From Candidatus Staskawiczbacteria bacterium RIFCSPHIGHO2_01_FULL_39_25 (GTDB lineage: Bacteria; Patescibacteriota; Minisyncoccia; Minisyncoccales; Staskawiczbacteraceae): 64,000 bases of DNA. Below, piece by piece: positions 1 to 64,000 of this stretch. Each line of letters opens with the position of its first letter. Position 1 is the first letter of the stretch. The stretch covers positions 1,958 through 65,957 of the forward strand of contig MHOO01000011.1 of assembly GCA_001820095.1 (NCBI GenBank). Direction: 5' to 3'. Position numbers and translations under genes: made by a program. The notes beneath the pieces were generated by a model. That model was not told the origin of the DNA and made no database searches. It saw only the letters and a program-made list of their open reading frames with translations.

Positions 1-138
1 TCCTAATTAACCTAATTATACTAATTAACCTAATCAAATCCTAAATCCTAATGCCAAAATTTTTAAAATGTTCTTTAGGAATTAGACATTTACCTGTTTA
101 GAAATTGATTAGAATAATTAGAGCAATTAGAATAATTC

Positions 139-4674: not shown

Positions 4675-5346
4675 ATGGGTTTAATTATGAAACTTAAAGA
4701 AAAAATATTAGCCCGCGAATTAAGAAGTAGGGGACTTTCATTGAATGAAATAATTACAGAAACAGGATTTGCAAAGGGTTCAGTAAGTCTTTGGGTCAGA
4801 GATATTGAACTAACTTTTGATCAGAAAAAGAATCTTTCTCAAAAGGGCTTAACTAAAGAGGCTATTGAAAAAAGAAGGATCACAAGGCTAAGTAGAGAAA
4901 ATGCCAGAAGACAGCTTATTATTGATAATGCTAAAAAAGAAATAAAAGCGACATCTTTGGCGGAATTAAAACTAATAGGGGCAATGTTATATTGGGCTGA
5001 AGGAGGCAAGACTCATGGCATTGCAAGACTTTCTAATGGCGATCCTAATGTAATTAAAGTCATGATGGAGTTTTTTAGAAAAATCTGTAATGTTCCAGAA
5101 AAAAAATTTAGAGGATATATTCACATTCATCCCCATCTCGATGTTAAAAGAGCTGAAATTTACTGGTCAGGAGTCTCGGGTATTCCATTAAATCAATTCT
5201 ATAAGACATATAATAAAATAAATAAAAGTAGTAAAAATAAAAGGGGCTCTCTACCTTTTGGAACGTTTGATATCTATGTTTGCAACACAGAATTACTTTT
5301 GAAAATTAAGGGCTGGATTGAGGGCATATACAAGAATATTATCTAA
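4675..5346 (+). CDS. hypothetical protein with N-terminal HTH and LAGLIDADG-like motif (possible homing endonuclease)
   Basis: HTH-like LSLNEIITETGFAKGSVSLWVRDI; LIGAMLYWAEGGK resembles the LAGLIDADG core; sits between tRNA-Val and tRNA-Phe. Confidence 0.4.
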   Translation: MGLIMKLKEKILARELRSRGLSLNEIITETGFAKGSVSLWVRDIELTFDQKKNLSQKGLTKEAIEKRRITRLSRENARRQLIIDNAKKEIKATSLAELKLIGAMLYWAEGGKTHGIARLSNGDPNVIKVMMEFFRKICNVPEKKFRGYIHIHPHLDVKRAEIYWSGVSGIPLNQFYKTYNKINKSSKNKRGSLPFGTFDIYVCNTELLLKIKGWIEGIYKNII

Positions 5347-12087: not shown

Positions 12088-12170
12088 GATCCGACCCATC
12101 CCTTGGGTTCGAGTCCCACAACCACGAATTTAAAATTTTAACCAAAAAGATTTAGTTAAAATGATTAAAG

Positions 12171-12254
12171 CGGTGGGTGCAGGACTCGAACCTGCAAGGG
12201 GATTGCTCCCGCTGGTTTTCGAAACCAGTGCCTTACCAATTAGACTAACCCACC
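12171..12254 (-). tRNA. tRNA-Ser(CGA)
   Basis: Reverse complement: acceptor ggtgggt/acccacc; anticodon stem ctggt/accag, loop ttCGAaa; long variable arm; T-arm gcaggttcgagtcctgc. Confidence 0.8.
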
Positions 12255-15004: not shown

Positions 15005-15069
15005 TAAATTCTTACTTCATAGTATACAAAAATAAACAATTTGCAATGGTTTTGAAAGTTCTGTATAAT

Positions 15070-15332
15070 TACTTTGAGTTACGAAATGCTTTCGCGGTAT
15101 TTTTCCAGAATTTGGAGATAGAAATTTGATAGAATTTTAAAATGTAGCAAGCTACATTTTAAAATTATTGCGAATTTATAGCCCAAATTCTGGTAGGGAC
15201 GCGCAGGGTCGCGAGAAATTCCCGCGAAGCGGGATTTCCCGACCTAGGCGTAATTCGCTTTAGCGAATTCGCCCCGTCCTAGAAAAGACCCGAAAAAAAA
15301 CGTTTTACATGGGCATTTCGTAATTCAAAGTA
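15070..15332. mobile_element. MITE-like element copy 1 (TIR tactttgaGTTACGAAATGC / GCATTTCGTAATTCaaagta); carries GGGTCGCGAGA hairpin copy b internally
   Basis: 20-bp terminal inverted repeats shared with copies at 19161-19336 and 57348-57522; internal nested palindromes; no ORF. Confidence 0.75.
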
Positions 15333-15364
15333 AATACTAAAAATTAGTTAAATGCCATTATAGT

Positions 15365-18198: not shown

Positions 18199-18205
18199 AG
18201 ATGAA

Positions 18206-18356
18206 ATGATTCTAATTATTCTAATTGCTCTAATTATTCTAATCAATATCTAATGTCTCAATGACTAGTTGCTCAAGAAAACATTTTGGGCATTGGGATT
18301 TGGAAATTAGGACTTGATTAGGTCAATTAGAATAATTAGATTAATTAGAAATTTTA
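18206..18356. repeat. ATTAG-type 9-bp-periodic repeat, inverted pair (rc arm 18206-18258, spacer, forward arm 18300-18356)
   Basis: gattctaattattctaattgctctaattattctaatcaatatctaatg ... gacttgattaggtcaattagaataattagattaattagaaat; sits between ABC ATPase and permease genes. Confidence 0.8.
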
Positions 18357-18357
18357 A

Positions 18358-19152
18358 CTATCTCATTAATTTATTGTTGATTCGCATCTGGTTCAACCCT
18401 ACATTTCCCTGTTCTTCGCGCATGGTGCTACCCGTAAGGGTAATAAACGCATCTTCTAATTTATTGACTCCTGCTTTCTGGAGAATTTCCTCAATAGTTC
18501 CAATAATAAGGATCTTTCCATGGTCAATAATAGCAATTCGTTGGGCAATGCGTTCTACTTCCTCCATATGGTGGGTAGTAAAAAATATGGTAACGTGCTC
18601 TTTTTTATTCAAATTATTAATGTAGCTCCAAATATGGTTTCTGGTCTGGGGATCAAGGCCGATGGTGGGTTCATCTAGAAACAGTATTTTGGGGTGGTGC
18701 AGCAACCCGCGGGCAATTTCAAGGCGCCGTTTCATGCCTCCTGAAAAATTTTTCACAAATGAATCTCTGCGGTCATATAATTCCACTAAACGCAATAAAT
18801 CCAGAATACGCTCATGGTACATTGGTTTTTGCAATCCATAGAGAATGGCATGAAATTGCATATTTTCATAAGCGGTAAGTTCATTATCTAGGCTGGGATC
18901 TTGAAACACAATTCCAAAAGAAGCCCGCACTTGATGCTGCTGGCGCATGGGGTCGCATCCATTAATGATAATGCTTCCTGACGTAGGTTTTACCAAAGTG
19001 GTAAGCATTTTTATGGTAGTAGTTTTGCCCGCTCCATTGGGCCCTAAAAATGCAAATACTTCTCCCTTTTGCACACTAAAAGATATATCGTTTACGGCGG
19101 CAAAATCCCCATATTTTTTCGTAACACCTTTTGTTTCTATGATATTTTCCAT
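18358..19152 (-). CDS. ABC transporter ATP-binding protein
   Basis: Walker A GPNGAGKTTT; signature LSGGMKRRLEIA; Walker B ILFLDEPT. Confidence 0.95.
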   Translation of the reverse strand: MENIIETKGVTKKYGDFAAVNDISFSVQKGEVFAFLGPNGAGKTTTIKMLTTLVKPTSGSIIINGCDPMRQQHQVRASFGIVFQDPSLDNELTAYENMQFHAILYGLQKPMYHERILDLLRLVELYDRRDSFVKNFSGGMKRRLEIARGLLHHPKILFLDEPTIGLDPQTRNHIWSYINNLNKKEHVTIFFTTHHMEEVERIAQRIAIIDHGKILIIGTIEEILQKAGVNKLEDAFITLTGSTMREEQGNVGLNQMRINNKLMR

Positions 19153-19160
19153 TAGTATAA

Positions 19161-19336
19161 TACTTTGAATTACGAAATCCCTAATGAAAAGGCAAGTTTC
19201 AGGTCTTTTCTCTAAATTTCATCTGCAAATTTGCAATAATTGTGATGCGTAGGCAAGCTACGCCTCACAATTCTATCAAATTTTCGCCGTGAAATTTAAA
19301 GAAAATCCCTAGAAAGCATTTCGTAATTCAAAGTAT
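19161..19336. mobile_element. MITE-like element copy 2 (TIR TACTTTGAATTACGAAAT / ATTTCGTAATTCAAAGTA)
   Basis: Perfect 18-bp TIRs; internal palindrome ataattgtgatgcgtaggcaagctacgcctcacaattctat; no ORF. Confidence 0.75.
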
Positions 19337-19372
19337 AATGATAAAAAATGGGGAATTAGAATTTAGTTAATG

Positions 19373-31544: not shown

Positions 31545-31670
31545 TATAGAATCTTGAATTTGGAATCTAGTAGCTTGAATGGAATTGTGAATTTAGAATG
31601 TAGGTTTTTCAATTCTTCATTCTTTTATTCTATTCTAGATTCAAGATACCAGATTCTATATTCACACTAC
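31545..31670. repeat. TAGAATCTGG / ATTCCATTCAAGCTAC repeat block (copy 2)
   Basis: Matches 3895-4012 and 33170-33250. Confidence 0.65.
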
Positions 31671-33154: not shown

Positions 33155-33169
33155 CATTATTAAGAATCT

Positions 33170-33250
33170 GGAATCTTGTATCTTGAAGCTAGAATACGAA
33201 CCGTAAAATTCTATATTCAACATTCCATTCAAGCTACCAGATACAAGATT
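33170..33250. repeat. TAGAATCTGG / ATTCCATTCAAGCTAC repeat block (copy 3)
   Basis: Matches 3895-4012 and 31545-31670. Confidence 0.65.
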
Positions 33251-33315
33251 CTAGATTCATAGTATAGTAAAGTTTGCTTTTTTTCAATTTTTATCGTAAA
33301 ATCATTTAATTAATT

Positions 33316-43564: not shown

Positions 43565-45931
43565 ATGCGTGATTTTTTCTCATCTATTCTGAAACAAAAA
43601 AAGATACTGTTTTTTATCTTGCTCTTTTTTGTTATCTCGGGAATTTTTTTGCCAAAAACAACATTTGCAATAGAATGGGTGGATAAAATAATAGATTCAA
43701 TAAGATATGCTCCCGAGAGAGTAGCAGCATTCATTGTAATATCATTTATTGCATTGCCAGCTATAACAGCAACATGGATTTTCAGAATGCTTGCTAACAT
43801 GGCGTATGCAACATTTAACTATGTGTTAAGTGAAATGATCCAAGATCCTGGAGATCAATGGGCAATAACTCGTAATCCTGTCTTTCTTGGCAGTTGGAAT
43901 ATTATAAAAAGCTATGCCAACATGTTTATTGTGCTGGGGCTTATTACCATTGCATTAGCCACTATTTTAAAATTTCGTGAAGATTATGGGGCAAAAAAGT
44001 TACTGCCGACACTTATAGGGGTTGCTCTCTTAGTTAATTTTTCCACGGTATTTGTTGGAATCATGATTGATGCATCAAACTTGGTAATGAAACACCTTGT
44101 GGTGGGAGGAGAACAGCAAGGTACTATTATTTCTTCCCTAAATATAGCTCACAACAATATTGTAGATCCATTATATAACCAAGCAATAGCTTCGGCGAGC
44201 GAAGCAAAAGATTGGTATGCCCCAATAGGCATAGGCTTAACCTATATAAGTGCAGAATATATTTTTGCAGCAATATATTTAGCCGTAGCGGTAATATTGT
44301 TTCTAATAACCTTAGTATTTATAGAAAGATATATTATGCTGGCAATTTTATTTATCTTTTCTCCACTAGCTTTTGTAGCTTTTATTTTTCCGGCCACAAA
44401 AAAGTTTTTTAGCAATTGGCTCCATCGTTTCCTTACTGCTTGTTTTTCCGGAGTAATTGCTGCTTTCTTTCTTAAGTTATCAGTAGGCATTCTAACTGTA
44501 TTTTCAACATCTGGTTCTAATATTTTTACCACATTTCAGGGAGAATCAGTTCTAGATACTATGCCGAAAATATGGATGCATCTTCTAATTGTTCAGGGAT
44601 TTTTATTTGCCGGATATAAATCGGCAAAGAAATCAAGTATTGTAGCGACCACAGTGATAGACACTGCAAAAGCTGTTGCTGGCGTAGTGATTGGAGCAAC
44701 TGCCGCAGTTGCCACTGGCGGCGCCTCGGCAGCCTTAAGGGCTACTGGAATTCCTGGAGCTGCACAAAGGGCTAAAGAGGGAATGAGTTATTATGGAACA
44801 AAATTAGCAGAAAGATTTGAGCCTCTTACTGGGGTTAGAAAAGGTACAGCTGATAGAATGAGACAACAAATGTTGCAAAAGCAAGTATCTACATCTGAAT
44901 CTGAAGAAAAAATGTCTGCCATGAGTTCTGAAGAAAGAGTTAAGTTAGCCTCTAAATTTAGAGATAATCGGTTGCTTTCTATAACTCCAGTTGATCCAAC
45001 TAAAATACAAGAAACAGTGGGACTTACAAAAGCTCTATTGAAGAATAAGGAGTTCGGTAATCTTGATAACGCACAACAAAGGCAACTTATTGAATTTATC
45101 AAAAGCAATGCTCCCAGCACAATCTCTATGAAGGAGTTTTCAAAGGTAAATGCTGACTATGGAGCCTACGATACGGATGCAGTTAATCAAGAAAAGAGAA
45201 AACTTATTGGCAAAACTAATCCTCGAACAGGTAACGCATATCTTGAGCATGACATGAATAATCCAAATGCAGCTCAATTTAAAGACATGCAAACTGATGC
45301 TGAAAATACCGTAATCAGAGATGCTTATGCTAAAATGGATGATAGTGAATTTAAGAAAATGAGCAATCAAGATATAGCAACCGAAGCAAAACAAGAAACC
45401 GCAAGAGGCAAACTAGCATTAGAAGAAGCTATAAAAAGAAATATACTTGGCATGGTTGGCAGCTTCGCAGAAACTGCCACACTAATTCAGGGTTCAGAAA
45501 AATATGGTTCAAAGGCCATGTATGAAGCTAAGAAAATTGACCCCAAATATGCTGAATATGATACAAAGGGAATACATGAACAACTTACTAAAAATGGCGT
45601 ACCAAATCCAACAATGGTTCCAACAACATCGCCTGACTTTATTAGAGCCCAACAAGAAGTTAAGTCAAACGCATATAAAAAGCTCACCGCTGGTTCTATT
45701 AGAAAAGACCTCTCTGATGATGCATTTGACTTGGAATTAGTGAAAAATGTCAGCGCTAAAAAGATAAGTGAAGCTAATAAGCAAGAGGGGCTCTCAACTA
45801 AGAAAATTGAAAAACTTAAAGCTTTAGAAGCAGATATCCAAGCAAAAGTATTGAATGCTTATGCAACTGGAAATAACGATGAAGCAGATCAATGGGCAGC
45901 TAAATTAAAAGCGATTAGAGCATTGTCTTAA
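43565..45931 (+). CDS. VirB6/TrbL-like polytopic membrane protein with about 450-aa Lys/Glu/Ala-rich C-terminal domain
   Basis: Signal peptide plus 7-8 TM in first 380 aa; first gene of the cluster containing PrgI-like and VirB4; assignment by topology and context only. Confidence 0.4.
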   Translation: MRDFFSSILKQKKILFFILLFFVISGIFLPKTTFAIEWVDKIIDSIRYAPERVAAFIVISFIALPAITATWIFRMLANMAYATFNYVLSEMIQDPGDQWAITRNPVFLGSWNIIKSYANMFIVLGLITIALATILKFREDYGAKKLLPTLIGVALLVNFSTVFVGIMIDASNLVMKHLVVGGEQQGTIISSLNIAHNNIVDPLYNQAIASASEAKDWYAPIGIGLTYISAEYIFAAIYLAVAVILFLITLVFIERYIMLAILFIFSPLAFVAFIFPATKKFFSNWLHRFLTACFSGVIAAFFLKLSVGILTVFSTSGSNIFTTFQGESVLDTMPKIWMHLLIVQGFLFAGYKSAKKSSIVATTVIDTAKAVAGVVIGATAAVATGGASAALRATGIPGAAQRAKEGMSYYGTKLAERFEPLTGVRKGTADRMRQQMLQKQVSTSESEEKMSAMSSEERVKLASKFRDNRLLSITPVDPTKIQETVGLTKALLKNKEFGNLDNAQQRQLIEFIKSNAPSTISMKEFSKVNADYGAYDTDAVNQEKRKLIGKTNPRTGNAYLEHDMNNPNAAQFKDMQTDAENTVIRDAYAKMDDSEFKKMSNQDIATEAKQETARGKLALEEAIKRNILGMVGSFAETATLIQGSEKYGSKAMYEAKKIDPKYAEYDTKGIHEQLTKNGVPNPTMVPTTSPDFIRAQQEVKSNAYKKLTAGSIRKDLSDDAFDLELVKNVSAKKISEANKQEGLSTKKIEKLKALEADIQAKVLNAYATGNNDEADQWAAKLKAIRALS

Positions 45932-45943
45932 ATTTGGTTAATT

Positions 45944-46447
45944 ATGGAAAAAATTAATAATCAACGAATAGTCTTTAACCTACCAGAAGATACCACAATA
46001 GTTGAAGTTATTGATGAAATTTTGAAAAATAATGGACTTGAGGAAAATAATAAAGAATTCATTAATAAATTAAAACAAGAGAAAGAGCCTAAATTTAGCG
46101 TAGCCAAAGACGCAGCGATAACCCTTGCACAAAAAAAGATCCCTGAAAAAAAGTTAATTGAACTACTGGCAAAACATCTCGAAACTTCTAAAGAAAATGC
46201 TGAAAAAATAGTGCGAGACATTAAGCAAAAACTTATTCCTTATGCTAAAAAAGTACCCACAGAAGAACCACTGAAAAAGAAAGAAATCATTCAGGCCGAA
46301 TCCCAAAAATCTCCCTTGCCTTATAGCAAAAAAATAGAAACCGCTAATGTAGAAGAAAACGCGGAAAAACTACAGAAGGCAAGAACGGTAATTCAGCAGA
46401 AAGAAGAAAGTAAGGGACCGGATTCGTACCGAGAAACTCTTGATTAG
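45944..46447 (+). CDS. hypothetical protein
   Basis: 167 aa, Lys/Glu-rich; no motif. Confidence 0.4.
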   Translation: MEKINNQRIVFNLPEDTTIVEVIDEILKNNGLEENNKEFINKLKQEKEPKFSVAKDAAITLAQKKIPEKKLIELLAKHLETSKENAEKIVRDIKQKLIPYAKKVPTEEPLKKKEIIQAESQKSPLPYSKKIETANVEENAEKLQKARTVIQQKEESKGPDSYRETLD

Positions 46448-46920
46448 GGTTTAGCGTCTAGGGGTTAGGGTATAGACAAAACTAATTAAACGCTAGACTC
46501 CAACACCTAAACCCTAATTCATTATGTATTTAGAATCCTATAAAAAACTCATAGTTTGGCAAAAATCTATTGAATTAGTAAAAAAAGTTTATATTTTAAC
46601 AAGCAACTTTCCACAGAGCGAACTTTATGGAATAACTTCACAAATGAGAAGAGCAGCAATATCTATTCCTTCAAATATAGCCGAGGGATACTCAAGAAAA
46701 AATTTAAAAGAATATTTACAATTTTTAAGAATTTCTTATGGTTCATCAACAGAGTTAGAGACCCAATTAATAATAGCAAAAGATTTATATAAGAACATAC
46801 ACTATAAACCTACCGAGGAACTACTAGAAGAAGTATTAAAAATGTTGAATGTAATGATTAATAAATTAGAAAACAAAAATTAACTAACTAAACGCTATAC
46901 CCTATACGCTAAACCCTAAC
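46444..46920. repeat. inverted-repeat-flanked cassette carrying a four-helix-bundle gene (IR arms about 46444-46522 and 46881-46920)
   Basis: Left ttagggtttagcgtctaggggttagggtatag vs right ctataccctatacgctaaaccctaa (reverse complement). Confidence 0.65.
46524..46883 (+). CDS. four-helix-bundle protein (23S rRNA intervening-sequence protein / Avd-like family)
   Basis: ISIPSNIAEGYSRKNLKEYLQFLRISYGSSTELETQLIIAKDL is the family signature. Confidence 0.8.
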   Translation: MYLESYKKLIVWQKSIELVKKVYILTSNFPQSELYGITSQMRRAAISIPSNIAEGYSRKNLKEYLQFLRISYGSSTELETQLIIAKDLYKNIHYKPTEELLEEVLKMLNVMINKLENKN

Positions 46921-46923
46921 AAT

Positions 46924-47328
46924 ATGTCACAATATCCCATTCCACAATTTATTGAAGAAGAAGGAAAAATTATCTTTTTCCTAACATTCCGGCAATTTTT
47001 TCTGCTTGCAGGAGGAGGAGCTGTTTGCCTTATTATATATTTTCTAGCCCCTTATTCCCTCTTTTTGGGCGCCGCGGCCCTTATTATGATAACGGTTATC
47101 GTCATAGCCTTTGTGAAGGTTCAGAACGCATCCATAGTAACTGTTGTGCTTAATATGCTTGGATTTATGGTAGGTAAAAAAAACTACACCTGGAGTAAAA
47201 GGGGAACAAATGCACGGCCCGAAACAGAAAGAAAGCAAGAATTTAAAAAACCCGTTGAAGTTCCGGCCCCAAAACTACAGCCCAGCAAACTAAGAGCAGC
47301 GCAGAAGATGATAGAGGTGAGGAAGTAA
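46924..47328 (+). CDS. PrgI/VirB3-like small T4SS membrane protein
   Basis: IPQFIEEEGKIIFFLTFRQFFLLAGGGAVCLIIYFL N-terminal pattern with two TM; immediately upstream of VirB4. Confidence 0.5.
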   Translation: MSQYPIPQFIEEEGKIIFFLTFRQFFLLAGGGAVCLIIYFLAPYSLFLGAAALIMITVIVIAFVKVQNASIVTVVLNMLGFMVGKKNYTWSKRGTNARPETERKQEFKKPVEVPAPKLQPSKLRAAQKMIEVRK

Positions 47329-47377
47329 TTATCCTAATTAACCTAATTATTCTAATTGTTCTAATCAAACCCTAATG
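47329..47377. repeat. ATTAG-type repeat arm (rc orientation) ending in ccctaATGtcc, which supplies the start of ORF 47375
   Basis: ttatcctaattaacctaattattctaattgttctaatcaaaccctaatg. Confidence 0.8.
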
Positions 47378-47770
47378 TCCAATGAAAAAAATACAAAATA
47401 CGATTTAGAAGAAAGAACTGCTAAATTCGGAGAAGATATTATAAATTTTGCAAAAATCATTCCAGTAAATCCAGTTACTCAAAGAATTATTCCTCAATTA
47501 GTAGCATCCGGAACTTCTATGGGCTCAAATTACTGTGAAGCAGACGATGCAGAATCTGGCAAAGACTTTAAGCATAAAATAGGAATTTGCAAAAAAGAGG
47601 GCAGAGAAACAAAATACTGGCTAAGGATGATAGCTGCTGCAGTGCCAGCATTAAGAGAAGAAGCACGAGTTTTTTGGCAGGAAGCTAAAGAATTACACTT
47701 AATCTTTAATGCTATTTATCGTAAAGTTAACAAAAAGCCTTTAGAAATTAAAAAATTAAGTATTGATTAG
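47375..47770 (+). CDS. four-helix-bundle protein, second paralog (TIGR02436-like)
   Basis: SGTSMGSNYCEADDAESGKDFKHKIGICKKEGRETKYWLRM matches the 4HB/IVS family pattern; flanked on both sides by ATTAG repeat arms. Confidence 0.65.
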   Translation: MSNEKNTKYDLEERTAKFGEDIINFAKIIPVNPVTQRIIPQLVASGTSMGSNYCEADDAESGKDFKHKIGICKKEGRETKYWLRMIAAAVPALREEARVFWQEAKELHLIFNAIYRKVNKKPLEIKKLSID

Positions 47771-47811
47771 GTAAATTAGATTAATTAGTATAATTAGAAT
47801 AATTTCAAAAC
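47765..47811. repeat. ATTAG-type repeat arm (forward orientation) ending aataatttcaaaacATG, which supplies the start of ORF 47812
   Basis: attaggtaaattagattaattagtataattagaataatttcaaaac; same terminal 27 nt precede ORF 48788. Confidence 0.8.
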
Positions 47812-48486
47812 ATGGAGCCGGCGACACAAGATTTTTTAGAAATTCAAGACATTAGAGAAGGCATTGTGATCTTGAAAAATAACAACATACGGGGGATATT
47901 AATGGTTTCCTCTATTAATTTTGCCTTAAAATCTGACGAGGAGCAGTCAGCCATTATTTATGCCTTCCAGAGTTTTTTAAACTCGCTGGATTTTTCGTGC
48001 CAGATTATCATACAATCCAGAAACATCAATATCACCCCCTACTTAGACAACATTAAAGCATTAGAAGAAAACCAAACGAGCGAGCTCATGAAAGCACAAA
48101 CTGCCTCATACGGAGAATTTATCCGAGAGCTAGTGAAAGGAGACAATGTAATGACAAAAAGCTTTTATGTGGTGGTGCCATATACGTTAGCAGAAATACT
48201 GGGAGTTGGATCTGCGGTAAGCAAATTTAATTTCTCTGAAATGCTAGGATTAGGCAAGAAAAGCAAAGGGGAGAATAAGCCGATAATAAAAGATGAAGAC
48301 TTTGAAAAGTGCAAAAACCAGCTTTGGCAAAGGATGGAATTTGTAGCCATGGGGTTAAAGAGGTGCGGATTAGACGTTATTCCCCTGACCACCCCGGAGT
48401 TGATTGAACTATTTTGGGCAACCCACCACCCCAGTGAAGCAGAAATCGGATACTCGCCGGAAGTAGTGCCAGAACTGCTGAAATAA
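47812..48486 (+). CDS. VirB4-family protein, N-terminal fragment
   Basis: FLEIQDIREGIVILKNNNIRGILMVSSINFALKSDEEQ matches the N-terminal domain of Gram-positive-type VirB4 (TcpF/PrgJ-like); stops at TAA at the first base of a repeat. Confidence 0.6.
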   Translation: MEPATQDFLEIQDIREGIVILKNNNIRGILMVSSINFALKSDEEQSAIIYAFQSFLNSLDFSCQIIIQSRNINITPYLDNIKALEENQTSELMKAQTASYGEFIRELVKGDNVMTKSFYVVVPYTLAEILGVGSAVSKFNFSEMLGLGKKSKGENKPIIKDEDFEKCKNQLWQRMEFVAMGLKRCGLDVIPLTTPELIELFWATHHPSEAEIGYSPEVVPELLK

Positions 48487-48787
48487 TTATTCTAATTGAC
48501 CTAATTTCTAATTGTTCTAATCAAATCCCAATTCCCAAGCCCCAATTCCCAAACGTAATTTGGGAATTAAGGAATTAGGCATTATTTTCTAGCAAGCGAA
48601 GGCAATAAAGATTCACAAATATTTATTGCCAAGCGGCGACGAAAATATGCTTTGCATATTTAGAATAATAGAAATAGGATTTATATAATACGTCGCTCGG
48701 TCGGCATACGTGAAACTGCGGTTTCCCCTATGCCTCCCTTGGCTAGTATTATTAGAGCAATTAGTATAATTAGAATAATTTCAAAAC
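48487..48787. repeat. composite repeat cassette splitting virB4: ATTAG arm, CCCAATTCCCAA repeats, and a 130-bp element (48655-48787) that is the inverted copy of 60153-60285
   Basis: Direct comparison: reverse complement of 48655-48787 matches 60153-60285 at about 97% over about 130 nt. Confidence 0.85.
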
Positions 48788-50590
48788 ATGTCATTTTTTA
48801 GTAAAAAAGAAAATAAGCAAAAAGGAGAAACAGAAGAAAGGTTCTTTGAAGAAGAGACTCTTAATATAAAGGATATTATTGCGCCTCCTTACATCGGGAT
48901 AACCCAGGACCATATTAATTTGGGCGAAAAATTCACCAAATCTTTTTTCATCTTTTCTTATCCTAGGTATTTAAACACAGGCTGGCTTTCCCCCGCTATT
49001 AACCTCAATGTCCCTATGGACATATCTTTTTTCATCCATCCCGTTAACAGTGAATTGATTTTAAAAAAATTAAGGTCAAAAATTACCCAAGTTTCCTCTG
49101 AATTAATGGAGCGGCAGGAAAAGGGGTTAATCCGCGATCCGGCGCTTGAAACCGGCTACCAGGACATTGAAACCTTAAGAGATAAGATAATTACTGCCCA
49201 GGAAAAAATGTTCCGGTTTGGGCTTTATATTACCGTATACCGGGACAATGCGGAACAAATGCGGGAAGTAGAATCAACTCTGCGGTCAATTTTTGAATCC
49301 CGACTAATCTATATAAAGCCCGCCCTATTCAAACAAAAAGAAGGGTTTATTTCCACCAGCCCCTACGGAATGGATTTGCTTTCGGTCCACATTCCTATGA
49401 ACACCGAACCGCTTTCCACCACCTTTCCATTTACGTCATTTGATTTAAGCTCTAACGAGGGAATTTTATACGGCATTAATGGCCACAATAATTCTTTGGT
49501 ATTATTTGACCGTTTTACCTTAGAAAACTCCAACATGGTGGTTTTTGCCAAGTCAGGATCCGGGAAATCATACGCCATAAAGCTGGAAATATTGAGATAC
49601 CTAATGTGGGGAGTTGATGTGATTGTTATTGACCCTGAAAATGAATATGAATTTTTGGCTGATGGAGTGGGAGGAGATTTCTTTAAGATATCACTAACAT
49701 CAGATTACCACGTAAACCCTTTTGACTTGCCAGTGCCAGGGCCCGATGACAGCGTAGATGACATTTTGCGGTCAAACGTAATAAATTTAGTGGGATTGTT
49801 AAGAATTATGCTAGGCGGATTGACGCCGGAAGAAGACAGCATCTTAGACCAAGCCCTTACCGAAACTTACGCCATACGGGATATTACCCCCCAATCTGAC
49901 CCTGCTACCTGGCAGGAAAATATACCGGTAATGTCTGACTTTGCGGAAATTTTAGAAAATATGACCGGAGCTGAATCCTTAGCCAGGCGCCTTAAAAAAT
50001 TCACCCAGGGAACGTTTGCGGGATTTTTTAATAGAAAATCAAATATTACGATTGAAAAAAACTTTATTGTGTTTGGCATACGGGATATGGAAGAATCTTT
50101 AAAACCCATTGCCCTGTTTATGGTCATGCGCTACGTATGGAATATCATCAGGAGCACGGTAAAAAAGAGGATTCTGGTTATTGATGAAGCCTGGTGGCTG
50201 ATGCAATCAGAAGATGGAGCTTCATTCTTGTTTGGCTTGGTAAAAAGGGGCAGAAAATATTGGCTGGGGGTAACTACCATAACCCAAGACATAGAAGATT
50301 TTATGAAGTCTTCATATGGCAAAGCCATTATTACCAATTCTTCGCTGCAGCTTTTGTTAAAACAGTCTCCGGCGGCTCTTGACGTACTGCAAACCACCTT
50401 TGACTTAACCGAACAGGAAAAAACACTTTTATTGGATGCCAATGTGGGAGAAGGCCTTTTCTTTGCCGGAAAAAAGCATGTCTATATCGGCGTAAAAGCC
50501 AGCTACACCGAAGACCAGATTATAACTACCAGCCCCGGGGAGGTTGAAAAAATCAGGGAGGCAAGGAAAAAATTACAACAACAGCAGTAA
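48788..50590 (+). CDS. VirB4/TrbE/CagE-family T4SS ATPase, C-terminal (ATPase) part
   Basis: IAPPYIGIT...FFIFSYPRYLNTGWL; Walker A FAKSGSGKSYAIK; Walker B VIDEAWWLM; 600 aa. Confidence 0.85.
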   Translation: MSFFSKKENKQKGETEERFFEEETLNIKDIIAPPYIGITQDHINLGEKFTKSFFIFSYPRYLNTGWLSPAINLNVPMDISFFIHPVNSELILKKLRSKITQVSSELMERQEKGLIRDPALETGYQDIETLRDKIITAQEKMFRFGLYITVYRDNAEQMREVESTLRSIFESRLIYIKPALFKQKEGFISTSPYGMDLLSVHIPMNTEPLSTTFPFTSFDLSSNEGILYGINGHNNSLVLFDRFTLENSNMVVFAKSGSGKSYAIKLEILRYLMWGVDVIVIDPENEYEFLADGVGGDFFKISLTSDYHVNPFDLPVPGPDDSVDDILRSNVINLVGLLRIMLGGLTPEEDSILDQALTETYAIRDITPQSDPATWQENIPVMSDFAEILENMTGAESLARRLKKFTQGTFAGFFNRKSNITIEKNFIVFGIRDMEESLKPIALFMVMRYVWNIIRSTVKKRILVIDEAWWLMQSEDGASFLFGLVKRGRKYWLGVTTITQDIEDFMKSSYGKAIITNSSLQLLLKQSPAALDVLQTTFDLTEQEKTLLLDANVGEGLFFAGKKHVYIGVKASYTEDQIITTSPGEVEKIREARKKLQQQQ

Positions 50591-52270: not shown

Positions 52271-52813
52271 CTAAATAACAGGGCTAATGACTACGCGCCT
52301 ATCAAAGCCCTCTCCCTGGCTTTCGGTAATAATGTCCTGCCTTCCCGACAGCTCTGTATGAATTATCCTTCTTTCATATGCTGACATAGGGGGTAATATT
52401 TTCTTTTCTTTAGTGATTGCAACTTCATCAGCCAAACTCCTAGCCAAGCCTTTTAGGTATTCAATTTTCTTTTTTTTATAATCATTAATATCTACGTTTA
52501 GGTGAAAATTGTTCTCTAATTTTTTATTTAGTAAAATCCTTAAAACTCTCTGAAGCTCAAATAACGTTTGCCCGCCCTGGCCAATTAACATTTGCGGGTC
52601 ATCTAATGTAATATCTACAGTTACTAAATACATACTAGGAGCTTCGTTAACACTTGGGACATCCAAAAGCAGGTCATCTTTTTTATCTTGAACCTCTTTA
52701 TTTTCTTGTGGTATAGCAGATAGATTTACGGTAACCACAAAAGACGACACCGTCATTTTCTGCAGCATCTCTTCAACTTTTTCTTTAATAATGTTGATTT
52801 GGCTTTGATTCAT
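52271..52813 (-). CDS. Jag/KhpB (KH + R3H RNA-binding protein)
   Basis: R3H motif ERRIIHTEL; downstream of yidC as in the canonical origin locus. Confidence 0.8.
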   Translation of the reverse strand: MNQSQINIIKEKVEEMLQKMTVSSFVVTVNLSAIPQENKEVQDKKDDLLLDVPSVNEAPSMYLVTVDITLDDPQMLIGQGGQTLFELQRVLRILLNKKLENNFHLNVDINDYKKKKIEYLKGLARSLADEVAITKEKKILPPMSAYERRIIHTELSGRQDIITESQGEGFDRRVVISPVI

Positions 52814-52822
52814 CGTTTCTTG

Positions 52823-52850
52823 TTTTACAGACTCCCGGAGTCTGTAAAAT
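52823..52850. repeat. palindromic repeat TTTTACAGACTCCCGGAGTCTGTAAAAT (copy 2)
   Basis: Identical to 17406-17431. Confidence 0.7.
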
Positions 52851-53561
52851 TTATTCGGGTACTTTTTTTAAAATATAGTATTGCTGGGCGATAGAAACTA
52901 TCCCGCTCACTATCCAGTAGAGCCCCAGCGCCGATGGCAATTTTAAAAGGATAATGACCGTGACAAATGGAAAAAAGTAAAGCATTTGCTTTTGCATAAT
53001 AGTCCCAATATCCTTGGCTTTTGCCTTATCTGGCTTAGGCATTAACATTTTAGTCTGGAAAAACTGGAGAATGCCCGCCAATATGGCAAACACTAAGTTT
53101 GGTTGAGCCAAATCTACCATCTGTAAAAACATTGAATTAATTTGAATTGGGTTTACCACAAAACTGTAAAGATTCCCAAGCTCTTCTGGTTTTAACCCCA
53201 GCCAAAAAACCCTGTAAAGCGCAATTAAAATAGGAAGCTGTATAATTACTAAGAATAAGCCGCTAAAGGGGTTAATTTTTTCTTTACGGTATAGCTCTAG
53301 GGTTTCTTGGGCCTGTTTTTCCTTGTCGTTTTTAAATTTGCTCTGTATCTCCTGTAATTTGGGCTGAAGCCTCTGGAGAACTTTTTGGGAGTGCAATGCT
53401 TTTACCGATAAGGGATATAAAACAAATTTTATAACTACCGTAAGAACAATAATTGCAACACCAAAATCATGTCCGGGGAAATAATTGTAAATTAACACCA
53501 GCACATTAAATAAGGGCTTGTATAAAAGAACATCAAAAATAGTTACTAAAAAACCAAACAT
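52851..53561 (-). CDS. yidC: membrane protein insertase YidC/Oxa1 (short form)
   Basis: 5 TM with conserved LPILIALYRVFW and IQQYYI regions. Confidence 0.85.
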   Translation of the reverse strand: MFGFLVTIFDVLLYKPLFNVLVLIYNYFPGHDFGVAIIVLTVVIKFVLYPLSVKALHSQKVLQRLQPKLQEIQSKFKNDKEKQAQETLELYRKEKINPFSGLFLVIIQLPILIALYRVFWLGLKPEELGNLYSFVVNPIQINSMFLQMVDLAQPNLVFAILAGILQFFQTKMLMPKPDKAKAKDIGTIMQKQMLYFFPFVTVIILLKLPSALGLYWIVSGIVSIAQQYYILKKVPE

Positions 53562-53574
53562 TGCTTTGGAGTTG

Positions 53575-53904
53575 TTATATTTTTTTAAAGAATTTTGCGA
53601 TAGCCGCCTGTATTTCTAGAAACTCTTTCTTATTGATTTGAGGCAACGCAATAATAACTACATCTGCCGGTTTTTTCAGATTTTTCAATTCATAAAAAGC
53701 TGCGTCCCTTAATCTTCTCTTAATTTTATTCCTTTGGGTAGCTTTGGAGGAAACTTTCTTGCTTACGATAAAGCCGAAACGGCCTTCTGGCAAATGATTT
53801 CCCATTGACTTGCATACCAAAAAATCATTTTTTATAGTTTCCCCCCTTTTAAAGACGGCATCAAAATCCTTTTTCTTAGTTAATCGGTTAATTTTGGGCA
53901 ACAA
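53575..53904 (-). CDS. rnpA: RNase P protein component
   Basis: LPKINRLTKKKDFDAVFKRG and KATQRNKIKRRLR RnpA signatures; listed ORF to 53952 uses a TTG inside the ATTAG repeat; the TTG at about 53901-53904 gives the canonical N-terminus. Confidence 0.85.
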   Translation of the reverse strand: MLPKINRLTKKKDFDAVFKRGETIKNDFLVCKSMGNHLPEGRFGFIVSKKVSSKATQRNKIKRRLRDAAFYELKNLKKPADVVIIALPQINKKEFLEIQAAIAKFFKKI

Positions 53905-53912
53905 CTTAAATG

Positions 53913-54057
53913 AATTCCTAATTATTCTAATTGCTCTAATTATTCTAATCAAATCCTAACTTCTAATGTCTAATTTATAAAAAATACTTATTCATTGGGA
54001 TTTGAGTATTGGGGCTTGATTAGGTTAATTAGAAATTAGGTTAATTAGTATAATTCC
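53913..54057. repeat. ATTAG-type 9-bp-periodic inverted repeat pair (rc arm 53913-53975; forward arm 54020-54057)
   Basis: cctaattattctaattgctctaattattctaatcaaatcctaacttctaatgtc ... cttgattaggttaattagaaattaggttaattagtataatt. Confidence 0.8.
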
Positions 54058-54195: not shown

Positions 54196-54575
54196 AATTA
54201 AATTGTATTTAATATTAATTTTAGTATAATATGGCTAGTATAGTACAAAATAGGCCCTTGGTCAAACCATATTTTAATTTGAAATTTGAAATATTTTACA
54301 TTGAATTCAAATGGCCTAAATTTCAAATTTCAAATTCATCGGTATTGTGCGTCTAAATAGAAACATATCACACAAATTATCCACAGTTTAACCACAGTTG
54401 TTCTTATTTTACCCTAATTTGACAAAGGGTTAATAAATAGAAAAAATACACTATTAAGTAATACTCACCTAATTCAAGATAAGTGAAAATGTATTTCACT
54501 TATCTGTTAGACCTATTGCGTAATAAGGTTTGTAGTATAAAAACTTATTACGCAACAGGTCTATTGTTTGTAATT
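54196..54575. other. putative oriC part 1 (rpmH-dnaA intergenic) with DnaA box TTATCCACA at 54377-54385 and a 17-bp perfect hairpin at 54510-54561
   Basis: Canonical rpmH-dnaA position; AT-rich; consensus DnaA box; AAATTTCAAATT repeats at 54285-54340. Confidence 0.6.
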
Positions 54576-57347: not shown

Positions 57348-57522
57348 GACCTTGAATTACGAAATGCTTTCACGGTATTTTCTCCAAATTTGAAGGCGAA
57401 AATGTGATAGAATTTTAAAATATAGTTTACTACATTTTAAAATTATTGCACATTTGTAGACCAAATTTGGAGAAAATACCTAAAACTTGCCGTTTCATGG
57501 GGCATTTCGTAATTCAAGGTCT
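57348..57522. mobile_element. MITE-like element copy 3 (TIR AGACCTTGAATTACGAAATGC / GCATTTCGTAATTCAAGGTCT)
   Basis: Perfect 21-bp TIRs; interior about 85% identical to copy 1; right end overlaps the PBP1A stop codon. Confidence 0.8.
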
Positions 57523-59999: not shown

Positions 60000-60203
60000 T
60001 TATTCTTCTTCGTCGGCCGCTACTTCATCGTCATCATCCTCTTCATCGTCTGCTTCATCATCCTTAACCTCTTCCTCTTCATTGCCATCGTCGTAATCAT
60101 CAAAGTCGTCTACTTGGCTGATAACATTGAGAAATTCCTCTTCCATTTTTTGAATTATTCTAATTATTCTAATTGCTCTAATAATACTAGCCAAGGGAGG
60201 CAT
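60000..60203 (-). CDS. small highly acidic protein (about 60% Asp/Glu)
   Basis: ATG at 60203 lies in the 130-bp inverted-repeat element (MPPLASIIRAIRIIRII); internal ATG at 60146 (MEEEFLNV) is an alternative start. Confidence 0.4.
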   Translation of the reverse strand: MPPLASIIRAIRIIRIIQKMEEEFLNVISQVDDFDDYDDGNEEEEVKDDEADDEEDDDDEVAADEEE

Positions 60204-60370
60204 AGGGGAAACCGCAGTTTCACATATGCCGACCGAGCGACGTATTATATAAATCCTATTTCTATTATTCTAAATAATAACTAATGTCTAATTTCTAAAA
60301 ACTTTTGGCATTAGGATTTAGGATTTGATTAGGTCAATTAGTATAATTAGGTTAATTAGACTAATTTATT
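60147..60370. repeat. composite repeat: ATTAG arm, 130-bp element 60153-60285 (inverted copy of 48655-48787), ATTAG arms to 60370
   Basis: See feature 48487-48787. Confidence 0.85.
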
Positions 60371-60438
60371 ATGCTTACTTTCCCTATTATATTTTTTCAC
60401 AGACCATTGTCAACCCCTTTTTTCCACAATCACATAAA

Positions 60439-62896: not shown

Positions 62897-63025
62897 TATA
62901 CATTTTTATGTAAAAAAAGTCGCCAATGGTTGGCGACTTACACGAAAAAAGCACCAATCATATGAGAGGCGCCTTCGTGGTTTTAGGATGTGTGGGGTGG
63001 TGTGGAAAATTAATTTATCAGGCCA

Positions 63026-63290
63026 GGAGTGTGGGACTCGAACAGAACCAATTGAGCTCTCGTATATTGCTTGTATTCAAGGATTGAGGAATGAAACGAT
63101 GCCTTGCGCATCGTTTCATTCTGAATACGCAGAAGACAAGCAAGTGACAGAGCCCGAAGGGAAGCGAAAACAGAGATGATGTCTGCGTTGCGACTTCGGA
63201 AACATAGCGCAAGGCTATGTTTCCTCGTCGCGCCTTGACCTCATCTCTGTTTTCGCTTCTCAAGCTGGTTCTGTTCGAGTCCCACACCCC
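63026..63290. repeat. 265-bp nested palindromic element with 24-bp TIRs (GGAGTGTGGGACTCGAACAGAACC / GGTTCTGTTCGAGTCCCACACCCC); MITE or structured RNA
   Basis: Internal 13-bp hairpin 63089-63121 and a 20-bp outer stem gcgaaaacagagatgaNgtc enclosing further hairpins; TIRs resemble a tRNA T-arm/acceptor; contains the ruvB stop codon. Confidence 0.7.
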
Positions 63291-64000
63291 TAGGTTGCTT
63301 TATTTTTAGCCCTAAATGCTCATAGGCGCGAGAAGAGGCAATGCGCCCTTTTGGGGTACGCTCAATAAAGCCGCATTGCATTAAATAGGGTTCATACATA
63401 TCTAAAATGGTGTCTTCTTCTTCTAGGGCTGCTGCCGCTAGTGATTGAAGCCCCACGGGTCCGCCGTTAAACTTTTCTATTAAGGCCAGTAAGATTTTAA
63501 TATCTCCGGGTTCCAACCCCAATGGGTCAATTTCCAGAGAGCTTAGCGCGTGCTCGGTAATTTCTTTGGTGGCAATGCCGGTGCTTTTTACCTGGGCAAA
63601 ATCACGAACCCTTTTTAAAAGCCGGTTAGCAACCCGCGGCGTAAAGCGCGACCGTTTGGCGATAATGGCAATGGCTTCCGGCTCAATATTAATGTTCAAG
63701 ATTTTAGCAGACCGCTCAATAATTTTTTCAATATCTTCTGGATTGTAAAAATTAAGTTGGAAGGTAGCCCCGAACCGGTTTCTTAAGGGAGCTGACAACA
63801 GGCCCGGCCGCGTGGTAGCTCCGATAAGAGTAAAATGGGGAAGCTTTAATTCCATGGTTCTTGCCATGGGCCCCTTGCCTAAAATAAGGTTTAGCTTATA
63901 ATCTTCCATGGCAGGATAAATATATTCTTCCACGGATTTATGGATTCTGTGTATTTCATCTAAAAACAGGACATCGCCCTCGGCTAAGTTGGTTAAAATT
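63241..64000 (-). CDS. ruvB: Holliday junction branch-migration ATPase RuvB (partial; N-terminus beyond window)
   Basis: [24 protein letters not shown] sensor/arginine-finger region, winged-helix C-terminus; last about 16 codons are encoded by the palindromic element. Confidence 0.9.

Follow-up and report, generated by a model that had tools for sequence, protein, structure and literature searches.

How does a VirB4-type ATPase come to be encoded by two open reading frames (ORFs) with some 300 nt of repeat-rich DNA between them? The question is raised by a 64,000-nt stretch (the window) of contig MHOO01000011.1 from Candidatus Staskawiczbacteria bacterium RIFCSPHIGHO2_01_FULL_39_25, a member of the Patescibacteria. 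A first, sequence-only reading of the window had correctly placed the two ORFs at 47812-48486 (224 aa) and 48788-50590 (600 aa), and had proposed that one virB4 gene was split by a repeat cassette that donated a stop, a new start and upstream signals, leaving either two working polypeptides or a pseudogene. Comparison with relatives leads to another answer: the two ORFs are a native two-gene pair, trsD and virB4, of the monoderm-type type IV secretion system (T4SS) of Patescibacteria, and the block between them, here termed cassette C, is an ORF-less, non-coding member of a family of hairpin cassettes that settled in a pre-existing tiny gap. Taken jointly, the claims that both genes are rightly identified, that the split is conserved, that the block is an insertion, that the cassettes form one family and that they have hairpin potential appear to us very probable. 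The features needed at this point are as follows.

47812-48486, plus strand: trsD, 224 aa, a stand-alone protein resembling the VirB4 N-terminal domain
48487-48787, plus strand: trsD-virB4 spacer, 301 nt, with the ORF-less cassette C
48788-50590, plus strand: virB4, 600 aa, a type IV secretion ATPase of the usual length for the lineage
46924-47328, plus strand: prgI (VirB3-like), PF12666, in the same operon

Identity of trsD and virB4

The 600-aa protein has a 100% identical counterpart, P0001, on GCA_001820275.1. It scores 349.8 bits against the NCBIfam VirB4 equivalog conju_CD1110, above the curated cut-off of 325 bits, covering positions 172-732 of the 752 in that profile, and its translation contains a GSGKS Walker A motif; Pfam places P-loop_TraG (PF19044, E=6e-27), AAA_10 and DUF87 on it. 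Its description in the sequence-only reading as the remainder of VirB4 is therefore sound. The N-terminal positions of the profile fall on the separate 224-aa ORF and not on a single full-length chain: the shorter product matches positions 2-119 of the CD1110 VirB4 profile and also positions 105-233 of the Mbov_0397 VirB4 profile (VirB4_plasma). Against the TrsD/TraD family NF041427 it gives E=2.8e-8, a weak match of 33.8 bits vs a cut-off of 200; a local Pfam scan of the 224-aa ORF returned no family, and PF26593 (TraC-like) is precomputed on all of its listed homologues. Whereas a sequence search of TrsD against the PDB found nothing significant, a fold search with the 224-aa protein as modelled by AlphaFold (pLDDT, the predicted local distance difference test score, 71) returned TrwK/VirB4 chains of plasmid R388 as all of its top 14 PDB matches.

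When joined, the two ORFs align collinearly with a rare, fused homologue of 797 aa, P0308, at 46% identity, and the sole gap consists of 23 extra residues at the junction, made up of the TrsD tail and the VirB4 head, with no residues missing. Profile positions, this alignment and the fold matches uphold the proposal that the 224-aa ORF is akin to the N-terminal part of a monoderm-type VirB4, and its gene occupies the place of trsD, immediately before virB4 in an operon of the monoderm-type T4SS. TrsD is thus a homologue of the VirB4 N-terminal domain with a gene of its own. According to a 2025 paper, it is remotely homologous to the VirB4 N-terminus and is the most abundant T4SS component in Patescibacteria, where 1,664 TrsD homologues adjoin virB4 (PMC12102498).

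Between homologues, trsD differs at 0.14-0.15 non-synonymous vs 0.76-0.82 synonymous differences per site, and for both genes together the non-synonymous range is 0.07-0.15 vs a saturated synonymous 0.76-0.82. By this measure, trsD and virB4 are both under strong purifying selection. As a separate observation, the VirB4 orthologues P0043, P0085, P0090, P0103 and P0106 are ~1265 aa long and carry LAGLIDADG_3 and Intein_splicing domains; virB4 is thus intein-invaded too, in other lineages.

Conservation of the two-gene layout

The comparison set consisted of 64 related metagenome loci and several genome loci, in each of which the trsD stop and the virB4 start were located; ~45 of the related loci compared are distinct. 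At every related locus examined trsD stops after ...PELLK and virB4 has its own ATG; in all ~60 related loci a stop codon parts the two genes. The gap between stop and start is 2-30 nt in 27 distinct loci, at orthologous positions, for instance TAAttattATG in L006, 13 nt in L009 and TAAatATG in L074, and in some relatives, e.g. L004 and L067, the two genes overlap. The stop and start of the window are native, because cassette-free relatives have both at the same positions. A check of sister genomes for an uninterrupted trsD-virB4 orthologue found none among the close relatives compared. Protein searches gave the same picture: the best 120 of 7,679 VirB4 matches are ~595-623 aa long, or ~1265 aa with an intein, the best 120 of 5,971 matches to the 224-aa query are ~220 aa long, and a fused form is seen in one of the best 150 representatives at 50% clustering, the other 149 being well short of fused length.

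The layout also reaches beyond the phylum, as PrgI, a TrsD-like protein and a VirB4 of ~620-640 aa follow in the same order on Pontibacillus and Clostridium perfringens plasmids (Bacillota). In the window the operon runs from a TrbL/VirB6 gene (43565-45931) through a 167-aa ORF, prgI, trsD and virB4 to a pilin-like gene. Both the pGO1/pSK41-type systems (TrsD with TrsE/VirB4) and the Patescibacteria T4SS (PMC12102498) likewise place the gene of a ~200-aa relative of the VirB4 N-terminus immediately before that of a VirB4 of ~600 aa; the operon also contains PrgI/VirB3, VirB6/TrbL and a pilin-like gene and lies beside rnpA-rpmH-dnaA. The spacers of the window operon differ from the published Patescibacteria system in holding hairpin cassettes, which are absent from that paper's main text; nothing essential differs. 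We also note that the T4SS operon adjoins the jag (R3H)-yidC-rnpA-rpmH-dnaA origin region, as seen at 52271-54000 of the window and in L014, in agreement with the reported origin-proximal placement of Patescibacteria T4SS genes (PMC12102498).

These comparisons decide between the native pair and the two readings with which we began. That an intact virB4 of ~820 aa was recently cut by a cassette donating the stop and the new start has its attractions, in that the TAA forms the opening triplet of the left arm, the repeat runs through the ATG and the two ORFs together tile the full-length VirB4 profile. It is nevertheless refuted by the empty sites, in which the same stop and ATG lie 2-30 nt apart with no cassette between them, and by a split that all related loci examined show, that recurs in Bacillota and that is already in print (PMC12102498), as against one fused form among the best 150 representatives; we find it scarcely credible. 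On this comparison of loci the split is ancestral, and the cassette did not cause it. A pseudogene, whether of one ORF or both, would have the unusual spacer in its favour and nothing more, and we consider it extremely improbable: both ORFs are full length relative to their orthologues, non-synonymous change lies far below synonymous change, virB4 scores above the equivalog cut-off, and one virB4-adjacent TrsD homologue appears in a list of essential genes of a cultured Saccharibacterium (PMC12102498).

Structure of cassette C

What, then, is the block between the two genes? Its parts, all on the plus strand, are these.

48484-48780: cassette C, with ATTAG-type arms and no ORF (longest 21 aa)
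48485-48521: left arm, of CTAATT 9-nt units, starting inside the trsD stop codon
48751-48780: right arm, of AATTAG 9-nt units, ending 7 nt before the virB4 ATG
48657-48780: 124-nt module, common to 60153-60276 (minus strand) at 98.4% identity, holding the hairpin GGCATACGTGAAACTGCGGTTTCCCCTATGCC
47784-47814: 31-nt repeat, copy 1 (right arm of cassette B, TCAAAAC and the trsD ATG)
48760-48790: 31-nt repeat, copy 2 (right arm, TCAAAAC and the virB4 ATG)

Tandem Repeats Finder reports the arms as period-9 arrays (48484-48521 and 48751-48780), and the trsD TAA (48484-48486) is, as had been seen, the first triplet of a TAATT unit, in complement orientation to ATTAG. The shared motif of 27 nt noted upstream of both ORFs is real as well: the 31-mer ATTAGTATAATTAGAATAATTTCAAAACATG occurs exactly twice in the window (0 expected in shuffles), both copies end in the ATG, and similarity around it extends to 40 nt at 95% identity. 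It is best understood as the right arm common to the siblings B and C plus 7 nt, abutting each gene's own ATG. The view that it supplies upstream signals does not hold, as the shared 27 nt contain no Shine-Dalgarno motif and no promoter above chance, and the repeat was accordingly dropped as a source of a ribosome-binding signal. Nor is the block made only of repeats: this is true of the two arms (~37 and ~30 nt) and the 124-nt module, while ~118 nt (48539-48656) have no second copy in the window and show only local hairpins.

The spacer RNA is predicted to fold at -88.8 kcal/mol (z = -5.96), with a stem of 28 bp in two 14-bp blocks, and the predicted base of that stem extends from the second base of the TAA to 7 nt before the ATG. 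An assembly artefact was considered and rejected: the spacer is identical in five contigs (L014-L018), each assembled from a different sample accession, and these five independent assemblies agree. A decayed IVP gene (see below) was likewise rejected as the cargo, as tblastn with the IVP1 and IVP2 queries detected no trace of either in cassette C.

A family of cassettes in the window

Cassette C is not alone. Related elements, with the genes that two of the cassettes carry, are found at the following positions.

46444-46919, plus strand: cassette A, with TAGGGT-type arms of 32 nt, 84% complementary, around IVP1
46524-46883, plus strand: IVP1, 119 aa, 23S_rRNA_IVP four-helix bundle (PF05635, E=2.6e-36)
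47326-47806, plus strand: cassette B in the prgI-trsD spacer, with ATTAG-type arms of 50 nt, 80% complementary, around an IVP gene
47375-47770, plus strand: IVP2, 131 aa, 23S_rRNA_IVP/four-helix bundle (PF05635, E=2.2e-10; TIGR02436, E=4e-17), the cargo of cassette B
1-137, plus strand: ORF-less ATTAG-arm hairpin ending 1 nt before an ATG
18202-18350, minus strand: ORF-less ATTAG-arm hairpin between two minus-strand genes
53916-54055, minus strand: ORF-less ATTAG-arm hairpin at the 5' end of rnpA, in the rpmH-rnpA spacer by synteny with L014 and L003
60153-60367, minus strand: ORF-less ATTAG-arm element that has the 124-nt module in common with cassette C and lies downstream of a consensus promoter

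Cassettes A, B and C lie in a row, each filling one intergenic spacer from stop codon to start codon. The sibling of C is cassette B, 976 nt upstream; the left ends of the two are 81-88% identical up to the IVP start codon in B (ATT in C), and their right ends are 95% identical over 40 nt. An alignment of B, C and the corresponding cassette of the related locus L020 shows homology in the arms only. Three-unit ATTAG arrays at 9-nt spacing give 17 matches at six loci in the window, where 0 are expected, and all ATTAG copies fold as long interrupted hairpins in which cores of 5-7 nt pair and the linkers form small internal loops. The ORF-less copies are near-symmetric, with linker motifs shuffled between copies, and their orientation is not assignable. 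For IVP2 the ratio of non-synonymous to synonymous substitution rates (dN/dS) is 0.09 vs the L020 copy, which indicates strong purifying selection.

Several side observations concern these repeats. The arms of cassette A consist of 7-nt TTAGGGT/CTAAACC units, and arms of the same type flank an IVP gene downstream of virB4 in the sister genome L003. Translated ATTAG arrays appear as IRIIR-type peptides at 47243-47368 (minus strand) and at the N-termini of 53575-53952 and 60000-60203 (both minus strand), and can cause start-codon miscalls, e.g. of rnpA. Just upstream of the 60153-60367 element lies a perfect TTGACA-16-TATAAT promoter consensus (~60384-60411, minus strand), and after the element an extremely acidic ORF of 48 aa (MEEEFLNVISQVDDFDDYDD...) at 60000-60146 (minus strand).

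The same spacer in relatives

In relatives the trsD-virB4 spacer has been filled again and again, by cassettes of the same architecture with other arms and other cargo. The closest counterpart is found in L020 (TrsD 77% identical), which has an ATTAG-arm IVP cassette between trsD and virB4, at 85-90% nucleotide identity to cassette B of the window, and an ORF-less ATTAG hairpin between prgI and trsD, a mirror of the window arrangement. IVP cassettes with AAAATG-type arms occupy the trsD-virB4 spacer of L010, L021, L025 and L035, and one with TTTGAAATT-type arms that of L061. The same spacer holds PDDEXK_3 genes (134 and 147 aa) between CGAATT-type arms in L023 and L039, a GIY-YIG gene (96 aa) between TTTGAAATT-type arms in L026 (spacer 1038-1540), and ORF-less hairpins of 40-148 nt in L001, L028, L031, L036, L046, L056 and L069. 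In L055 the spacer (1524-1996) is 471 nt long and ORF-less, with a very stable predicted fold (-139 kcal/mol) and no Rfam match. A related arrangement is seen one gene upstream in the sister genome L003, where the prgI-trsD spacer (4690-5215) has a PDDEXK_3 (GxxExxY-type) gene between TTCCGCG/CGCGGAA arrays.

To judge from these loci, the trsD-virB4 gap is a recurrent landing site for cassettes. All 15 of the ORF-bearing cassettes examined are co-oriented with the operon; among 23 cassettes, the arm starts no more than 4 nt from the first base of the stop codon in 15 and ends 0-10 nt before the ATG in 20. The occurrence of TTTGAAATT-type arms with an IVP gene in one locus (L061) and with a GIY-YIG gene in another (L026) suggests that cargo may be exchanged via the arms.

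Comparison with rRNA intervening sequences and homing genes

The nearest known parallel is the intervening sequence (IVS) of 23S rRNA genes in Coxiella, Leptospira and Salmonella (PMC4990558). In these, as in the cassettes, terminal inverted repeats close a long stem round a loop, the loop may hold an S23p/23S_rRNA_IVP four-helix-bundle ORF, ORF-less versions exist, and the distribution is sporadic and selfish-looking. In Coxiella the S23p ORF sits in a loop closed by a 28-bp stem that is cut by RNase III (PMC4990558). The optional character of the ORF is equally plain, as IVP is absent from C and present in A and B and in the spacer cassettes of L020, L010, L021, L025, L035 and L061. The differences are that the cassettes lie in an mRNA operon, where they separate protein-coding genes, and not in an rRNA helix, there being no rRNA gene in the window; that each arm repeats a unit of 7-9 nt, the linkers being unpaired; and that PDDEXK_3 and GIY-YIG genes also occur as cargo. 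Within the Candidate Phyla Radiation, rRNA insertions are reported to contain 23S_rRNA_IVP ORFs (PMC11270868). From the likenesses to the IVS we infer that cassette C is a selfish element, akin to the intervening sequences of rRNA.

The nuclease-fold cargo recalls another kind of element. T4-like phages carry free-standing homing endonuclease genes, which spread by intronless homing; these are small genes of nuclease folds (GIY-YIG, PD-(D/E)XK) wedged between conserved genes, and their presence varies between close relatives. They resemble the cassettes in placing nuclease-fold cargo in the gaps of conserved genes and differ in being without flanking hairpin arms. The commonest cassette cargo here, IVP, is not known to be a nuclease.

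How the insertion might be tolerated

A Shine-Dalgarno motif lies upstream of virB4 in two of 44 distinct related loci and is missing from the other 42. Since the genes moreover abut or overlap in cassette-free relatives, virB4 expression probably needs a nearby trsD stop or an unstructured start. An insert of 300-500 nt would disturb that expression, and we therefore propose that the insert is folded away or removed by RNase III. If the arms pair, the insert would become a single stem-loop with its base reaching from inside the TAA to 7 nt before the ATG. This stem-loop might restore the close spacing of stop and start and so permit coupled, Shine-Dalgarno-independent translation of virB4, the terminating ribosome melting the base of the stem and freeing the virB4 start codon. 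Alternatively, the stem might be an RNase III substrate and be clipped out, as happens with the 23S rRNA IVS. That one or other of these accounts for the tolerance of the insertion is a tentative proposal, about which we are rather more doubtful than convinced.

Several observations weigh against the reading that we favour, a selfish cassette made harmless by its RNA hairpin. In cassette C the predicted fold of the antisense strand is no less stable than that of the sense strand; wobble mismatches number 22 sense G-U vs 32 antisense, which is no bias towards sense RNA; and each copy's own arms pair no better than the arms of different copies in a matrix of duplex energies, so that co-evolution of arms within a copy was rejected. 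The flush geometry of the arms is what any insertion in a tiny gap would produce and is not independent evidence for function. The reading does not account for the 205 nt of cassette C cargo, no transposase was identified in the regions screened, namely the operon, the cassette ORFs and their cargo (IVP, PDDEXK_3, GIY-YIG), and the cassette borders show no clear target-site duplication. As to the genes, the lone fused homologue used for the alignment at the junction, P0308, could be an artefact of sequencing or gene calling.

Because there is no sense wobble bias and the antisense strand folds equally well, pairing could matter at the DNA level, and it is here that a different account of the cassettes has to be weighed. 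In that account they would resemble MITEs (transposable elements of the miniature inverted-repeat kind) or REPINs (doublets of repetitive extragenic palindromes forming hairpins), with arms that an enzyme acting in trans would recognise, either in duplex form or as a single-strand hairpin, and the RNA hairpin would have no role. MITEs, Correia elements and REPINs are indeed similarly short, multi-copy and intergenic, with inverted repeats and ORF-less derivatives, and they too are transcribed as part of operons, with the capacity to form hairpins in RNA; the window has ATTAG arms at six loci in 64 kb, with multiple copies sharing arms around variable interiors, and arm type mostly tracks cargo type, the exception being the TTTGAAATT-type arms already mentioned. 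Against this likeness, no transposase or tyrosine-transposase gene was identified in the regions screened, the cassette borders show no clear target-site duplication, and the ORF-bearing relatives encode IVP, PDDEXK_3 or GIY-YIG proteins and no transposase; in addition, the linkers that separate the repeat cores lack the complementarity of typical terminal inverted repeats, and the co-orientation of all ORF cargos with the host operon points to reliance on host transcription. We regard an exclusively DNA-level element as unlikely, if far from negligible. A function for the ORF-less cargo, in the form of a small RNA, of a leader or of an internal promoter module for virB4 and for the gene after 60153-60367, strikes us as improbable. 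The 124-nt module, 98% identical at two loci in the same orientation relative to the downstream gene and furnished with a TATAAT (48685-48690) and a well-formed hairpin, would fit such a role, yet a recent duplication would explain two near-identical copies just as well. Moreover, Rfam has no match in any cassette (46300-49000 at E<=10, the whole window and four related loci), promoters and terminators in 46300-49000 occur in chance-level counts and the plus strand of the cargo has none, the cargo of cassette C has no similarity in the 64 related loci, and the 19-mer of its hairpin has two matches among 185,579 species genomes, in unrelated phyla and judged to be chance. A selfish cassette related to the IVS, settled in a gap that was there before it, thus continues to be our preferred account of the block.

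Other repeats in the window

The spacers of the window are generally rich in hairpin repeats. Other intergenic palindromes, which fall into families that include GAATCT-unit arms and GCATTTCGTAATTCAAAGTA pairs, lie at the following positions.

15066-15336: intergenic palindrome
15112-15187: intergenic palindrome
19152-19344: intergenic palindrome
31545-31660: intergenic palindrome
33158-33264: intergenic palindrome
54508-54563: intergenic palindrome
57400-57455: intergenic palindrome

Inverted pairs of fragments resembling tRNA 3' ends (GGTTCGAGTCCCAC...) are found at 12106-12192 and 63012-63304; one such pair lies beside tRNA-Ser, and no tRNA was called at 63 kb.

Significance

The layout of TrsD with VirB4 is already known and ordinary, and annotators should not flag the pair as a split gene or as a pseudogene. 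What is of interest beyond this is the family of hairpin cassettes in operon spacers. In the searchable literature, whose coverage is incomplete, we came across no account of such cassettes lying between protein-coding genes, which is weak evidence of novelty. The genomes concerned are tiny, and in them an operon reported as essential in a cultured relative has spacers that have been repeatedly colonised by IVS-like hairpin cassettes.

If the hairpin renders such insertions harmless, this would explain how selfish elements persist in streamlined genomes, and it would give a concrete genetic context to two widespread families without an assigned function, 23S_rRNA_IVP and GxxExxY (PDDEXK_3). 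More widely, we speculate, while thinking it rather unlikely, that Patescibacteria harbour a general and so far undescribed class of IVS-like selfish hairpin cassettes with arms of short tandem units and IVP, PDDEXK_3, GIY-YIG or no cargo, which would occupy 2-20-nt stop-start gaps of essential operons with their cost cancelled at the RNA level, whether through a fold that rejoins stop and start and so preserves Shine-Dalgarno-independent coupling or through clipping by RNase III. If this is true, such cassettes would be the mRNA-spacer counterpart of introns, inteins and rRNA intervening sequences, with the ORF-less copies riding on the same arms.

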